Positions 2,126-8,540 of a stretch of DNA of 16,017 nt are shown here, one piece after another. Positions within the stretch are counted from its first letter, which is position 1. Every line of letters begins with the position of its first letter. A program made the position numbers and the translations under genes. The notes under the pieces were generated by a model that searched no databases, was not told the origin of the DNA, and worked only from the letters and a program-made list of their open reading frames with translations. Source of the DNA: a virus (lineage: Duplodnaviria > Heunggongvirae > Uroviricota > Caudoviricetes); IMG/VR virus record IMGVR_UViG_2622736468_000001; one strand, 5' to 3'.

Positions 2126-2764
2126 ATGAAACGTCCGAATATGCTCGTACAGGGGCAGGGCTTCGTTCAGCCCGAAGAACTGAGCCAACAGTATTTCGCC
2201 GCAATTATTCCGGTAATTTCCGGCAATGAGATTATTGCTGACGGAATAAATAAAAATGCACTCACCGCGCCGGAAGTGTTTCCTTCTGGCGGTGAGCCTG
2301 TAACCACTTCACAGGCTATCGCCCGATTTTTCAGAAAGGATCACGATAAGGTTGTTAACCGGATTGAAAACCTGTGTTGTTCTGCTGAATTTTTAACCCG
2401 CAATTTTCGGCGGGTAAAATTTGAGCATAAGGGGCGCGTATTGAAAGCCTACGAAGTCACCAAAGACGGCTTCGTGTTTTTAACAATGGGATTTACCGGA
2501 AAAAAAGCGGCTGCATTCAAAGAGGCATACATTGCGCAGTTTAACCGCATGGCTAACTGGATAGCAGAGAGATGTGAGGCCAAAGCTGAGATGCGCTCTA
2601 TGGGGGATGCCATGAAGGGATACATTGAGCGCACTGGAGATACTCAACACGGTCATGCTTATAACAACGAATGTACTTTCATTGCGCGCCTTGTATTAGG
2701 GATGCACCCGCCTGTATGGGCCAAAAAAACGGCATCCCATCAAAAAAAGTTCGTGACCATATGA
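2126..2764 (+). CDS. Rha-family phage regulatory protein, N-terminal reading frame; the family-typical C-terminus continues in the -1 frame to 2916
   Basis: AGGAG Shine-Dalgarno; core VTTSQAIARFFRKDHDKVVNRIENL ... YEVTKDGFVFLTMGF resembles the Rha domain. The -1 frame (to 2916) encodes VRDHMTADQLALLAYLESRNCALLDMDMPTPERKERL, which resembles the usual Rha C-terminus. Confidence 0.7.
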   Translation: MKRPNMLVQGQGFVQPEELSQQYFAAIIPVISGNEIIADGINKNALTAPEVFPSGGEPVTTSQAIARFFRKDHDKVVNRIENLCCSAEFLTRNFRRVKFEHKGRVLKAYEVTKDGFVFLTMGFTGKKAAAFKEAYIAQFNRMANWIAERCEAKAEMRSMGDAMKGYIERTGDTQHGHAYNNECTFIARLVLGMHPPVWAKKTASHQKKFVTI

Positions 2765-3222
2765 CCGCTGATCAACTGGCGTTGCTCGCGTATCTGGAAA
2801 GCCGTAACTGTGCGCTACTGGATATGGATATGCCAACGCCAGAACGTAAAGAACGTCTCACCGAATTAGCCCAACGCTGGCTGGTCCGTCGCCTGGGAGA
2901 ACGTGAACATGCCTGACATCCGCAACGCTGCCGCCCTGTACATCGATACTGCGGATAAGTTCGCACAGGTGAGCATCAACCATGCTGATTACATGCGCCA
3001 TATCGTGAGCCATTTCGCCGCTGAGCGCATGAAACACGTTAAGCATTATCAGAAGGAGGCTTTATCAAATTATCGCGCTGGTGGCCCTGTACGGCGCGAA
3101 TATCCGCATGATGCAGGAATGGCAGGCAAAACAAAGGCGACCACGAAAGGGTCGCCAGTGGAGATAAAGGAAATCAAGCGCATTATCCACAATGCCATAT
3201 CTGAGGCTGGTGGACAATGCTA

Positions 3223-3501
3223 TCAGCCTGGCGGGCGATTTTTGGTTGCTTTTAGCCGCCGTGGGTATTTCCTGAGAAACTCTTCAAGTGCAAATTTTTT
3301 ATCTCTTGTATGCGATGCCTTTGACTCGTCGTCACATGTTTTTCCTCGTCTTATCCTGTTTTCAATAAAACGGGAAGCGGCCTTTTTATTCAGCGATGAA
3401 TCAATGGGGCTGCTCCCTGTTTGCTGCTCGACAATGGCATCCATGAGTAGTTGGTGTTGTAGTTGTCGTAAAAATTTCTCATCTTCTGGTGGTAAATCCA
3501 T
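3223..3501 (-). CDS. Hypothetical small protein, paralogue A (92 aa, MDLPPEDEKFLRQLQ...KKFALEEFLRKYPRRLKATKNRPPG)
   Basis: ATG at 3501 (minus) preceded by AGGAAA; C-terminal 22 residues conserved with the ORF at 3598-3777, with several synonymous third-position differences between the copies. Confidence 0.4.
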   Translation of the reverse strand: MDLPPEDEKFLRQLQHQLLMDAIVEQQTGSSPIDSSLNKKAASRFIENRIRRGKTCDDESKASHTRDKKFALEEFLRKYPRRLKATKNRPPG

Positions 3502-3597
3502 ACTTATTTCCTGTACAGCGGAGCGACGCAGCACCTCACACCACGGCGCTGATGGTTGTTATTCGTTTTATGGAGTCAGAGAAGCAAAAGCGGATCG

Positions 3598-3777
3598 CTA
3601 TCGGTTTTTAGGCGAGATTAATCGCCGTGGGTATTTGTCCAGAAATGCCTCAAGCGCAAATCGTTTTGGTCTGGTGAGAGGAGAGGGATTAAGCAAAGAC
3701 TCGCGTTCCAGGCGTACTTTTTCGCGCTGTCGCTCAAGTATGGATAATGCGATTTCCTGTAGTTCTTCATTTGTCAT
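3598..3777 (-). CDS. Hypothetical small protein, paralogue B (59 aa, MTNEELQEIALSILERQREKVRLERESLLNPSPLTRPKRFALEAFLDKYPRRLISPKNR)
   Basis: Translated by hand from the minus strand (under the 60-aa cut-off of the ORF track); C-terminus KRFALEAFLDKYPRRL matches paralogue A. Confidence 0.4.
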   Translation of the reverse strand: MTNEELQEIALSILERQREKVRLERESLLNPSPLTRPKRFALEAFLDKYPRRLISPKNR

Positions 3778-4060
3778 TGTCTGTACCCGTAAAGCGGTGC
3801 GCTGTAGTACCTCATATCACAGCGCAGGTATTTTTTATGGTTGTAATTTGCGTGATGATTCAGGTCGCTTTGCGACACACTGCATAAACATAAATAACGT
3901 GATGTTATTATGTGCTTTCAAAGAAAACGCAGGTATTTTTCGCACAAACTTCTCTCGCAACACATCCGACCACTTAAGCAAAAAAGCGGCATATACTGAG
4001 GCTATCCCTTATAAAACGGGGATCGGGATTACCACCCCGCTGGAGTTAGAGGCGATACAC

Positions 4061-4081
4061 GACGCGCCAGCGTCTTTTTTT
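4061..4081 (+). terminator. Possible intrinsic terminator (short GC stem plus T7 run)
   Basis: GACGC (4061-4065) / GCGTC (4070-4074) stem with a 4-nt loop, followed by TTTTTTT (4075-4081). Confidence 0.35.
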
Positions 4082-4246
4082 GTATCGGCGCACACGCACA
4101 CCTCAACAATGGTGGGCTGTATGGGGCCGACTTCGGTCGGGCTGGTTTCCTCTAACGCCAGTTGTGGTAACCCTGTACAGTCCACCGCCAGCGAGCTTAC
4201 CACCTCCGGCGGTGGGTATAATCCCAAAGTCAGAGGAGCCTTTCAC

Positions 4247-4417
4247 ATGGCTGTATCCGCACGCCCTTACTTTGTCTGGCGCTTTATGCAGTGCCTGACA
4301 GGTAGCATTGCAATATTCACCGTTACCGCTGCCACTGAGCGCGAAGCACGCGCGCAGCTGCCGCACGCACATCTGATTTTTGTCGCCCGTATCCGTCAGG
4401 AGGTGACTCATGCTTAA
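4247..4417 (+). CDS. Hypothetical small protein (56 aa), first gene of the operon leading to the primase
   Basis: GAGGAG 8 nt upstream of the ATG at 4247; a TATAAT hexamer at 4217-4222 lies just upstream; stop overlaps the next start. Confidence 0.45.
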   Translation: MAVSARPYFVWRFMQCLTGSIAIFTVTAATEREARAQLPHAHLIFVARIRQEVTHA

Positions 4418-4664
4418 AACCTTCCGTGTTTTTTCCCGTGCCGTTAATGCACGCGGCTATACCGTTGGCATCACGCAGAACGTGAAGGCCGAAAACGTCC
4501 AGGCTGCAATCAGCACAGTAATTAACAAATCAGCTAAAGCCGGTTTATCCGGCGTAATTATCCACGCCGTTCATGAAATTAAGGGGTGCAGTAATGCAGG
4601 AAATGACACTGGCAGAAGCCTCACTGAAAGCGCAACAGGTCGAAGTAATCAGCCGCATGATTGA
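4410..4664 (+). CDS. Hypothetical small protein
   Basis: AGGAGG 7 nt upstream of the ATG at 4410; the N-terminal ~57 aa look protein-like, the C-terminal tail is low complexity and overlaps the next gene, so the true end is uncertain. Confidence 0.45.
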   Translation: MLKTFRVFSRAVNARGYTVGITQNVKAENVQAAISTVINKSAKAGLSGVIIHAVHEIKGCSNAGNDTGRSLTESATGRSNQPHD

Positions 4665-4841: not shown

Positions 4842-5141
4842 ATGACATCAAAAAATTCTGGCTTAACTGCCAGTGGCAAAGCTCAACCTGAATTTATGCG
4901 CGGGGATATTTACCGCGATAAGTACGGCGGCATCGTGACAATTATCAGCGTGAGAGAACGCCGTATCGCCTACCGCCGTGAAGGCTATGACTATGACTGC
5001 GTAATGCCACTGTATCAGTTCGCGCGTGATTTTTCTCTGGTGCAGTCCGTGCCGCGCGGTAAGCCAGCCAGCAACGCAAAAGCAGAGGCGAACATCCGAA
5101 AGATGAAAAACATGATTAACGCATTCAGGGGCAAGAAATGA
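4842..5141 (+). CDS. Hypothetical protein (99 aa), translationally coupled to the primase gene
   Basis: AGGAG upstream of the ATG at 4842; stop overlaps the primase start in an ATGA arrangement (5138-5141). Confidence 0.6.
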   Translation: MTSKNSGLTASGKAQPEFMRGDIYRDKYGGIVTIISVRERRIAYRREGYDYDCVMPLYQFARDFSLVQSVPRGKPASNAKAEANIRKMKNMINAFRGKK

Positions 5142-7276
5142 AAAGCGCACCGAATTTAAAAAAACAGCCGAAAGACAAAATGACCGAAGTCATTATCTTT
5201 GCGGGTAGTGATGCCTGGGCACATGCGAAAGAGTGGAGCGAATGGGCCGGAAAGCATATTGCAGCAGATGATACACCGCCCGTTATTCTTGGACCGAAAC
5301 AACTGGCGAGCCTGGAAGACACGAAAATCATCGATAAAGGGCGCAATTACGTGCGCGTTTATCGTGCTGGTGAAATATCAGAGACAGCACTTTTACAGAT
5401 AGCAACACTGCTTGCGGTGGCGGGTGTAAAGGAGGCACGCTGCTACAGCGGCTTTGTTGACCAGCAGCCGGAGGACTGGACACCGCGCATGGCTGGACTG
5501 AAGGATGATGCGGAACGCGGCAACTGCCTGGTGATCAATCTTCCGGCAAAGACAAATTTCACCGGAAATTATGATGACGAATTAAAACCCCGCGTTGAAT
5601 GCCGTCCTGATGGCGTTTACTGGGTGACGCCAAAGGTTGATAAGCAATCTGGCGAAATTATCCGTCCGTTCGAATGGCTGTGTTCTTCCGTTGAATTACT
5701 CGGTTCAGGTGTCATTGGTAACGAGCATTACCGCGTGATGCGCTGGACAGATTCGACAACAAATCGGCTTGTCACTATGGCTGTGCCTTGCTGCGGAATA
5801 GGCGACACTGACGGCTGGCGATTACTGAAAGCCAACGGGCTTAAAGTCACGACAAACGGAAAACACAGGATCCCCCTGGCTGACTGGATGCAGTTAGGCG
5901 GACAGCATGAGGAATGGCACTTAAGCCCGAAGGCTGGCTGGCATTTTGGCGCGTACATCATGCCGGACGGTACGGTTATCGGCGAATCTGACAAGCCCGT
6001 TTTGTTTACCGGAAAAAGTGCCGCGATTAACGGTTATTCCGTGGCAGGAACGGCGGAAAGCTGGCGCGACAGCGTGGCGCGGCTGGCTGGTGGCAATCCG
6101 TTCATGATGCTGGGTATAGCGACGTCATTATCCGCGCCATTAGTCGGGCTGACAGGCGCTGATGGTTTTGGCGTGCATTTTTTCGAGCAATCCACAGCAG
6201 GCAAGACCACAACGCAGAGCATCGCGTCGAGCTTGTGGGGCGATCCTGAGGCGCTGCGATTAACCTGGTACGGAACGGCGCTGGGGATAGCTAACGAAGC
6301 AGAAGCACACAATCACGGACTCCTTCCACTGGACGAGATAGGGCAGGCAGGAAGCCCCCGTGACGTGTACGTATCCTCATACACTTTGTTCAATGGATTC
6401 GGAAAATTACAGGGGGCAAAGGACGGCGGCAACAGAGAGCTGAAAAACTGGCGGACCGTTGCTATCAGCACCGGAGAGGTGGATATCGAAACATACCTCA
6501 AAACGTCGGGGATAAAAGTTAAGGTCGGGCAACTTGTGCGCCTGCTCAATATCCCGATTCAAAAAGCCACGCAGTTACACGAATACAGCAACGGAAAGGA
6601 TCACGCTGACGCATTGAAGGCGGCATGGCAAGAAAACCACGGCGCAGCGGGGCGTGAGTGGATTAAATGGCTTGCGGAGAACCAGCAGGAAGCTAAGGAC
6701 GCGGTTAGAGAGAGCCGTGCACGCTGGCGAAATATCATTCCAGACAATTACGGTGAGCAGGTCCACCGCGTGGGTGAACGTTTCTCCATACTGGAGGCCG
6801 CGCTTGTGCTTTCCGGTCATGTAACTGGCTGGTCCGTGCAGGAATGCCGCGATGCAATTCAGTATGTATTTAATGCCTGGGTAAAAGAATTTGGCACGGG
6901 CAACAAGGAACACAAACAGATCATTGAGCAGGCAGAGGCGTTTCTTGCTGCCTACGGCATGAGCCGTTTTGCGCCCGTTGATTATGACCCAGCCAGCCTG
7001 CCGATTTCTGAGCTGTACGGCTACAGGGATTCGGGAAGCCGTTACGATGAACCATTGTTGTTTTACGTATTATCGGAGCCGTTTAAATCGAAAGTAGCGG
7101 AAGGCTTCAACAAGGATACCGTTGCAAAAATACTCCACGAAGCTGGAATGCTGAAACGACCAGAGAGCGGGAGAGGATGGAAAATCAAGACCCCACGCCT
7201 TAAGAACCTTAATGGAGCGCAATTATGGGCCTACGGGATGTTGTTCGCTAATCACGATGAGGAGGGAAGCGATTAA
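5138..7276 (+). CDS. Replication initiator: primase/helicase-like protein (pri-rep; P4 alpha / DUF927-like)
   Basis: 712-aa ORF with a Walker-A-like STAGKTTTQS motif mid-protein; sits immediately upstream of an iteron-rich AT-rich origin, the arrangement seen in P4-like and PICI replicons. Family assignment is from recall, not a search. Confidence 0.8.
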   Translation: MKSAPNLKKQPKDKMTEVIIFAGSDAWAHAKEWSEWAGKHIAADDTPPVILGPKQLASLEDTKIIDKGRNYVRVYRAGEISETALLQIATLLAVAGVKEARCYSGFVDQQPEDWTPRMAGLKDDAERGNCLVINLPAKTNFTGNYDDELKPRVECRPDGVYWVTPKVDKQSGEIIRPFEWLCSSVELLGSGVIGNEHYRVMRWTDSTTNRLVTMAVPCCGIGDTDGWRLLKANGLKVTTNGKHRIPLADWMQLGGQHEEWHLSPKAGWHFGAYIMPDGTVIGESDKPVLFTGKSAAINGYSVAGTAESWRDSVARLAGGNPFMMLGIATSLSAPLVGLTGADGFGVHFFEQSTAGKTTTQSIASSLWGDPEALRLTWYGTALGIANEAEAHNHGLLPLDEIGQAGSPRDVYVSSYTLFNGFGKLQGAKDGGNRELKNWRTVAISTGEVDIETYLKTSGIKVKVGQLVRLLNIPIQKATQLHEYSNGKDHADALKAAWQENHGAAGREWIKWLAENQQEAKDAVRESRARWRNIIPDNYGEQVHRVGERFSILEAALVLSGHVTGWSVQECRDAIQYVFNAWVKEFGTGNKEHKQIIEQAEAFLAAYGMSRFAPVDYDPASLPISELYGYRDSGSRYDEPLLFYVLSEPFKSKVAEGFNKDTVAKILHEAGMLKRPESGRGWKIKTPRLKNLNGAQLWAYGMLFANHDEEGSD

Positions 7277-8094: not shown

Positions 8095-8540
8095 CAGCAC
8101 AGATTGCAGCTTACGGGCGGCTGGTGGACGACCCGCAGGTAAAACAGACCAGCAAGGGAACAGCGATGACGCTGGCGCGTATGGCGGTATCACTGCCATG
8201 CAGTCAGGCACAGGACGGACAGGCGACGTTATGGCTATCAGTCCTGGCATTTGGTAAGCAGGCCGACGCGCTGGCGAGACATGAAAAAGGCGACCTTATC
8301 AGCGTGGCGGGTAACATGCAGATCAGCCAGTGGACCGGACAGAACGGGGAAACACGGCAGGGCTGGCAGGTTATCGCTGACAGCGTAATCAGTGCCCGTT
8401 CGGTGCGCCCTGGCGGGAAGCGGGGGCAACAGGGGAAGGCGACTGAAGCACTGGAAAGAGCAAAACGACAGACCGGACAGCAGGGAAATCAGCCACCAGC
8501 GGGAGGTGATGACCCGTTCTCTGACGATATTCCGTTCTGA
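8091..8540 (+). CDS. ssb: Single-stranded DNA-binding protein
   Basis: OB-fold-like core alignable by eye to E. coli SSB (WLSVLAFGKQADALARHEKGDLISVAGNMQISQWT), glycine/glutamine-rich linker, and the canonical acidic tail DDIPF at the C-terminus. Confidence 0.85.
   Translation: MTAQIAAYGRLVDDPQVKQTSKGTAMTLARMAVSLPCSQAQDGQATLWLSVLAFGKQADALARHEKGDLISVAGNMQISQWTGQNGETRQGWQVIADSVISARSVRPGGKRGQQGKATEALERAKRQTGQQGNQPPAGGDDPFSDDIPF

Follow-up and report, generated by a model that had tools for sequence, protein, structure and literature searches.

The 1.5-kb region that follows the Rha gene in an E. coli phage satellite is probably used on both strands: the plus strand would carry a long read-through ORF of the eta/kil type known from P4, and the minus strand an array of genes for small proteins. 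The window analysed is the whole 16,017-nt stretch of IMG/VR record IMGVR_UViG_2622736468_000001, and all positions given are numbered along it. An initial annotation had listed a 504-aa plus-strand ORF (2903–4417) and two minus-strand ORFs (3223–3501 and 3598–3777). All three are present at those positions. It had also treated the two strands as alternatives, and this either/or treatment appears to have been its wrong step, since the evidence set out below favors a reading of both.

The window represents an integrative island of E. coli, a phage satellite of the PICI/P4-like kind, with the order int, alpA, rha, long ORF, DUF4222, DUF927 primase and SSB, after which come accessory genes and insertion-sequence elements. 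The integrase (1–1215) and AlpA (1858–2061) represent the integration zone, the Rha gene (2126–2916, frameshifted in the window copy) and the long ORF belong to the immunity or Bro zone, and the DUF927 primase (5138–7276) and SSB represent the replication zone. This layout agrees with the zones (integration, Bro, replication, late) into which Gram-negative phage-inducible islands have been divided (PMC10111431), and the stretch studied here is the Bro zone of the satellite. Identical or near-identical islands are held by complete E. coli genomes, where PGAP calls the entire 1.5-kb frame one “host cell division inhibitor Icd-like protein.” Of 5,426 complete E. coli genomes, 776 contain DNA homologous to the small-protein family described below, for the most part as a diverged O157-type remnant.

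The recognizable immunity factor of the island is an RNA. A C4/CI-type antisense immunity RNA is encoded on the plus strand at 4105–4192 (Rfam RF01695, 77.7 bits; gathering score 45) and is full-length, with model positions 1–87 covered. Upstream of it is an isrK-like leader (4004–4080, plus strand; 48.3 bits, just below the gathering score of 50), which contains a seqA-like target recognized by its complementarity to C4 (4040–4052) and ends in an intrinsic terminator (4061–4080). A seqC-like downstream target, likewise complementary to C4, is located at 4197–4211, directly before the ribosome-binding site of a nested Icd/Kil-like gene (4247–4417, 56 aa; NF033153, 53.4 bits) that forms the C-terminal end of the long ORF; both are on the plus strand. 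A scan for sigma-70-like promoters on both strands of positions 2600–4500, the minus-strand array included, found none. The sequence TATACT at 3992–3997 (plus strand), 6 nt upstream of the leader start, is a candidate −10 box for a constitutive PLE-like promoter. The two minus-strand ORFs are thus oriented opposite to the main operon in an immunity zone, as initially proposed, and beside a C4/CI-type RNA gene.

The start of the long stop-free ORF is likely to be the ATG at 2909 rather than the GTG at 2903, giving a feature at 2909–4417 on the plus strand that is defined by the ORF listing, the PGAP call and the openness kept in relatives. This ATG overlaps the upstream Rha-C ORF, which stops at TGA 2914–2916, and has GGAG 9 nt upstream of it; because Rha is frameshifted in the window copy, translation of the long ORF may be less well coupled there. 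The first ~100 aa (2909–3220, plus strand) make up an N-terminal domain (...HIVSHFAAERMKHVK...GKTKATTKGSPVEIKEIKRIIHNAISEAGGQ) that is conserved in the island comparison, is fused to a Rha-type N-terminus in some islands, and has no match in Pfam or NCBIfam. From there the frame crosses the antisense genes, the isrK-like leader and the C4 RNA gene, with the Icd/Kil-like protein as its end. The middle part translates to Cys/Ser-rich sequence that is wholly different among islands with different antisense genes, so that what is conserved there is openness, not protein sequence. Among protein families (Pfam, PHROG, NCBIfam), matches to the plus ORF were found only over the C4 RNA stretch and Icd; the Pfam Phage_ASH match and several PHROG “repressor” matches cover residues 337–504, which are simply the leader, the C4 RNA gene and Icd in translation. 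A rut-like, C-rich plus strand over the antisense genes was also looked for and is absent.

Judged from its sequence organization, the 1.5-kb plus frame is the counterpart of the nested eta/kil ORF of P4. Neither C4 immunity nor the eta/kil design is new. According to the part of PMC10111431 that draws on Forti et al. (1999), the constitutive promoter, seqA and CI all lie within eta, Kil is a truncated eta, and transcripts that start at the upstream late promoter are saved from termination by translation of eta. In P4, a 214-codon open frame abuts vis and extends over the C4-family CI RNA (8420–8507) and an isrK-like leader, and residues 161–208 of Eta/Kil match NF033153 at 73 bits, compared with 53.4 for the Icd-like end of the island frame. 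In both elements the ORF abuts the gene upstream of it, starts upstream of the constitutive immunity promoter (a candidate in the island), and covers a seqA-type target, the CI/C4 RNA gene and a downstream target, and in both its last ~60 codons encode an Icd/Kil-family protein. The island frame differs in its length (504 codons, vs. ~200 in P4), in following a Rha/Bro-type gene rather than coming directly after vis/alpA, in having a conserved N-terminal domain, and in hosting two antisense protein genes (up to four in relatives).

Nothing else at the locus is conserved as strongly as the absence of stops from the plus frame. Across 11 island types, which differ in their antisense genes and replication modules, it contains no stops over 347–674 codons, while each other main-strand frame has 13–35 (Poisson P for the stop-free frame, 1e-8 to 1e-15). 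In eight of the 11 it extends between the upstream gene and the Icd-like stop, and L008/L009, a ninth type, has it open beyond that stop; L011 and the L015 type have a frame shift near C4/icd, before icd. Relatives with 96% identity that carry the PGAP label “frameshifted” nonetheless have a plus frame open for 574 codons. The initial annotation had dismissed this frame as unlikely to be one real protein. That holds for its middle, which encodes no conserved protein, but for the frame as a whole the dismissal is not supported, given its conserved openness.

The antisense genes themselves also bear on this point. Stop-free plus frames are found over 15 of 16 antisense small genes, unrelated RHH genes among them; by synonymous resampling the chance of such openness per gene is ~0.05–0.65 for most and 0.86 for one. 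At 48 at-risk sites, which are the informative dicodons in 14 diverged antisense genes, the synonymous choice that creates a plus-frame stop was taken just once, and that single case comes from the O157 remnant; at control sites 31% of codons end in T (Fisher P=9e-7). Among synonymous codons, the antisense genes favor those that leave the plus frame open. Tandem antisense genes are mutually in phase at every locus, as read from their coordinates.

On the minus strand, the two ORFs look, from their sequences, like real paralogous genes. Gene 1 (3223–3501) encodes 92 aa from an ATG (MDLPPEDEKF...KKFALEEFLRKYPRRLKATKNRPPG), or 103 aa if the GTG at 3534 is used, and gene 2 (3598–3777) encodes 59 aa (MTNEELQEIALSILERQREK...KRFALEAFLDKYPRRLISPKNR). 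Their C-termini are identical at 18 of 25 residues (BLASTP E=3e-10), which together with the recurrence of the family in 36 clusters bears out the paralogy first suggested for them; the 16-residue block singled out at that time is shared and C-terminal, with 13 rather than 14 identical positions. The underlying duplicated block of 75 nt (3235–3309 and 3601–3675) is identical at 51 of 75 nt. It preserves 18 of 25 residues in the minus frame and 14 of 24 in the plus frame, and 13 of the 24 nt differences are at third codon positions, with eight of the differing codons synonymous on the minus strand. The block is thus better kept in the minus frame, as had been claimed, but the register is such that minus codon position 1 lies opposite plus position 2 and the third positions lie opposite each other, so synonymy on the minus strand discriminates poorly between the strands.

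For the same reason standard dN/dS cannot separate the two frames, and third-position arguments of this kind were dropped as strand discriminators. The strand-by-strand comparison of substitutions across islands that had been called for could be made in another way: minus-frame replacements are milder, with a mean BLOSUM62 score of −0.51 vs. −1.15 in the plus frame and the same direction in 44 of 45 pairs, a result biased toward the minus frame, whose proteins guided the alignment. In this same alignment, minus codon position 2 is less variable than position 1. Base composition is a further indication. Coding sense strands are usually A-rich; within both ORFs it is the minus strand that is A-rich (the plus strand being T-rich and A-poor), the opposite of nearby plus-strand genes. 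Given the plus protein, the probability of an open minus ORF in synonymous resampling is ~0.02–0.66 for 13 of 14 genes tested and 1.0 for one, and since the minus ORFs came from ORF-based searches, their intactness is partly an ascertainment effect.

A profile search places the two proteins in a family that forms 36 clusters when grouped at 90% identity; at 50% identity there are 24 representatives among 1.84 billion proteins. Where sources are named, all members are “hypothetical proteins” of E. coli or Shigella. Members have 56–92 aa, with an N-terminal helix (..LxxIALSILERQRE..) joined by a linker rich in proline to the C-terminal sequence FALE(D/E)F(L/V)xKYPRRLKATKNRPPG. The motifs ILERQRE and FALEDFxxKYPRRLKATKNRPPG are kept, with exchanges of F/Y, L/V, D/E and K/R; gene 2 of the window lacks the last three family residues. 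An AF2 model of its product has helices at residues 3–29 and 41–53 and no strand (mean pLDDT 80); the family consists of fast-evolving, hydrophilic proteins with a predicted helix-linker-helix form and a basic tail. The genes are always antisense and between the alpA/Bro genes and the C4-icd module, in arrays of one to four diverged paralogs, and this synteny and orientation are constant among islands with different replication modules. In another island the same position and strand are taken by a bona fide YlcI/YnfO gene (59 bits, with a cut-off of 30), in the same kind of array and within the open frame, so real antisense genes do occur inside this frame.

The statement that the small proteins belong to no recognized family has held up. 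Neither has a match in Pfam or NCBIfam (both at E<=1), in PHROG, or with PADLOC, for which their paralogs gave weak partial matches only (E>0.003). Foldseek comparison of the AF2 model with PDB and viral structures gave nothing significant, and no family relative was found by a profile search of PDB sequences, in the GTDB species representatives scanned, or in a tblastn search of 50,697 phage records with one family member. Two more specific identities were considered and rejected. A YlcI/YnfO or other ribbon-helix-helix repressor does not agree with the absence of a model match for either ORF or with the two predicted helices and no N-terminal strand, and a type I toxin does not agree with two hydrophilic, strongly charged proteins that lack any hydrophobic stretch.

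Putative expression signals in the minus orientation accompany the family. The ATG, a purine-rich ribosome-binding site, the stop position and an upstream module are all conserved among its genes. In the window, where ribosome-binding sites had been assigned to both ORFs, gene 1 does have one (AGGAA, 7 nt ahead of the ATG), while gene 2 has only a weak GGG where its relatives have AGG or AGGAG. The upstream module, present ahead of most family genes, is ~70 nt long and has the form accatcaGCGCCGT-loop-ACGGCGC-attgctttacAGG-N8-ATG. Upstream of gene 2 it includes a stem-loop, GCGCTGT-N13-ACAGCGC (3799–3825, minus strand; dG −16.5 kcal/mol, z −1.95); the copy upstream of gene 1 (3523–3549, minus strand) is degenerate and has no energy excess. 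Across the family 88% of cells in the stem are paired, and three pairs have changed on both sides. Eight core-helix pairs are G-U in minus-sense RNA, compared with three that are G-U only in the plus sense, which favors the minus-sense RNA as the one that would form this candidate stem-loop. At the far end of the array, an intrinsic terminator (GGCGACC-loop-GGTCGCC followed by TTTGTTTT; 3136–3156, minus strand) has a fold z-score of −4.2. Although inside the plus coding sequence, it is found in all nine island types examined, with the stem weakened in L011.

Readings in which only one of the strands encodes protein of any consequence have to be set against the use of both. In one, there is a single gene, the 504-aa plus ORF, and the minus-strand frames are its shadows, kept open by the third-to-third register. 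PGAP and other gene callers do call the long ORF; openness of a minus ORF given the plus protein has a probability of ~0.1–0.4 (0.02–1.0 over the 14 genes, synonymous resampling); and in this register selection on one frame mimics purifying selection on the other. A shadow would not, however, be expected to conserve its own ATG, ribosome-binding site, stop position, upstream module and terminator, or to show protein-like substitutions with the more conservative replacements. The units of homology and duplication are minus-strand cassettes, a gene of a curated RHH family is found at the same place in the same orientation, the AT skew suggests that the minus strand is sense, and in the decayed O157:H7 remnant two of three minus ORFs are still intact although the plus frame is broken. 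The shadow explanation is accordingly regarded as improbable. The converse, that the plus frame is meaningless and only the minus-strand small proteins are functional, as the immunity proteins of the island, is rated slightly lower still. It accounts for a Cys/Ser-rich middle that is not conserved between islands with different antisense genes and for the lack of family matches outside the C4 RNA stretch and Icd, but not for openness conserved in divergent islands (each P<1e-8) or for antisense codons that avoid plus-frame stops (P=9e-7), and it sits poorly with the precedent of P4 eta/kil and with a recognizable immunity factor that is the C4 RNA.

The remaining two alternatives concern the RNA. 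The minus transcript could be a long antisense RNA directed against the eta-like mRNA and nothing more, with the stem-loops as kissing loops and the ORFs incidental. A stem-loop module with a conserved loop is found ahead of each cassette, the read-through mRNA would have full complementarity to such transcripts, and the adjoining C4 system already acts by RNA pairing. Amino-acid motifs that survive many nucleotide changes (F/Y, L/V and D/E exchanges) are nevertheless difficult to explain in this way, as are conserved start and ribosome-binding sites, and one of the two stem-loop copies in the window is degenerate; this possibility is given the same low standing as a meaningless plus frame. 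Least probable of the four is that the hairpins are plus-strand terminators or pause sites acting against read-through from the alpA side, so that the repeats would be duplicated terminators and not genes. On the plus strand a T-rich tract does come after each hairpin (ACAGCGC-aggTATTTTTTAT at 3819–3838 is one case), but the T-run begins 3–4 nt past the stem and none of these sites came up in the terminator scan. The distribution of G-U pairs (eight vs. three) favors the minus-sense RNA, and the conserved coding blocks would be left unexplained.

If both strands are used, the plus strand would work by analogy with P4. Induction would start from an upstream promoter on the alpA side, and ribosomes on the long frame would trail the RNA polymerase, shielding the transcript from Rho-dependent and C4-dependent termination so that icd and the replication genes are reached; plus-strand translation, in other words, probably keeps induced transcripts from terminating. 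The minus strand carries two cassettes, in each of which a small ORF with its ribosome-binding site follows a 5′ stem-loop, and the array is closed by the intrinsic terminator. It is suggested, with some reserve, that the quiescent island is the state in which this array is probably expressed, and that convergent transcription or antisense pairing may let it counter leaky read-through. Its protein products may contribute as well, perhaps by acting on a regulator or on a partner from the helper phage, and the several diverged paralogs hint that there is more than one partner.

A broader and more doubtful version may also be put forward, tentatively. The eta-like frame could be a pure “translational conduit,” selected only for having no stops. 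Being free in its protein sequence, it could then serve as a landing pad for antisense small genes, a nursery in which FALEDF-motif genes and RHH repressors are always accommodated in the one register that synonymous choice is able to keep open. Together they would add a second layer, made of protein plus antisense, to a convergent bistable switch that decides whether the island stays quiescent or is activated by the helper.

Other known systems resemble the locus in part. The immI region of P1/P7 (c4, icd, ant) likewise has a C4-family RNA with flanking complementary targets, then an icd-like gene, and antirepressor-type genes (Rha/AntA/Bro) are found in the same zone; in the island the antirepressor-type gene is upstream of c4-icd, not downstream. 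P1/P7 immI is not known to contain an antisense small-gene array. The small RHH-like YlcI/YnfO proteins (NF041551) are encoded in related islands with the same antisense array, open frame and register, but the window proteins match neither NF041551 nor other models and are predicted to be helix-linker-helix proteins. Antiparallel overlapping genes have been described in E. coli O157:H7, for example laoB and ano (PMC5810103, PMC5960689). Like them, the island genes are short coding ORFs antisense within a longer annotated ORF; here, however, the host frame is apparently selected for openness only and not for its protein, and the embedded genes are a conserved multi-copy family with their own terminator. 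The family is not listed in the Sakai small-gene supplements or in an Enterobacteriaceae small-ORF survey, and no description of a nested antisense array, of the FALEDF-motif family or of a synonymous-codon signature that preserves an open host frame was found in the publications examined.

Should both strands prove to be used, the locus would be a natural case of two-strand coding in which one strand is selected only to be stop-free and the other for protein, with a measurable signature in codon choice. The anti-termination design of P4 eta/kil would extend to a large group of E. coli satellites, and a small-protein family largely overlooked by genome annotation would be exposed, its members being candidate regulators of satellite-helper or satellite-host interactions. 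There would be consequences for existing annotations as well, since Pfam Phage_ASH, some PHROG “repressors” and the 500-aa “Icd-like protein” of PGAP would then probably be translations over a regulatory RNA and a read-through frame, not folded proteins. The arrangement is found more widely in IMG/VR, where 12 further loci have opposite-strand open frames of 204–485 codons, seven of them with an Icd-like C-terminus.

The minus-strand intrinsic terminator at 3136-3156 of the window lies within a conserved plus-strand coding segment (codons GKTKATTKGSP), and the plus-strand Lys-Thr-Lys-Ala codons provide the complement of its U-tract. It is a second site with information on both strands. The Pfam Phage_ASH match is restricted to the translation of the long ORF over the isrK-like leader and C4 RNA gene (window 3992-4252, residues 364-450), and so are the matches to several PHROG families that carry the label "transcriptional repressor" or "regulator". 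Phage_ASH and these PHROG families may largely represent a regulatory RNA region translated in an eta-like frame.

Some related islands carry tandem pairs of C4 RNA plus icd-like modules, at 3096-3183 and 3577-3664 in L012 and at 2829-2916 and 3310-3397 in L017. The roxA-side island L003 (NZ_CM169472.1), in which C4 RNA was not detected, has three copies of TGTGCGCACA around a TTGACA-like box at 3330-3420, between a YlcI/YnfO-type gene and icd; a protein repressor may take the place of C4 RNA here. Its long frame is nonetheless stop-free, over 408 codons. E. coli O157:H7 SS17 keeps a decayed remnant of this region next to iha (L002, 3700-4450), with three minus paralogs in tandem and a plus-strand 90-aa ORF called by PGAP on top of one of them. 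Matches to the region are found in 776 E. coli genomes, the majority of them to L002-type remnant DNA approximately 75% identical to the window.

The Rha-family gene that precedes the long ORF (window 2126-2916) is frameshifted, with a 212-aa ORF at 2126-2764 followed by another at 2671-2916, and in an identical island it is labelled a pseudogene by PGAP. The frameshift may weaken translational coupling into the long ORF in the window copy.

Elsewhere in the window, a gene for a C-5 cytosine DNA methylase (8765-9904) and a 358-aa ORF without a Pfam match (9840-10916) overlap; together (8765-10916) they could be an island-borne restriction-modification pair. A phage antiterminator Q-like gene (12581-12979) is followed by insertion-sequence genes at 13534-15620, comprising an HTH_Tnp_1 ORF and an IS66-family transposase on the minus strand.
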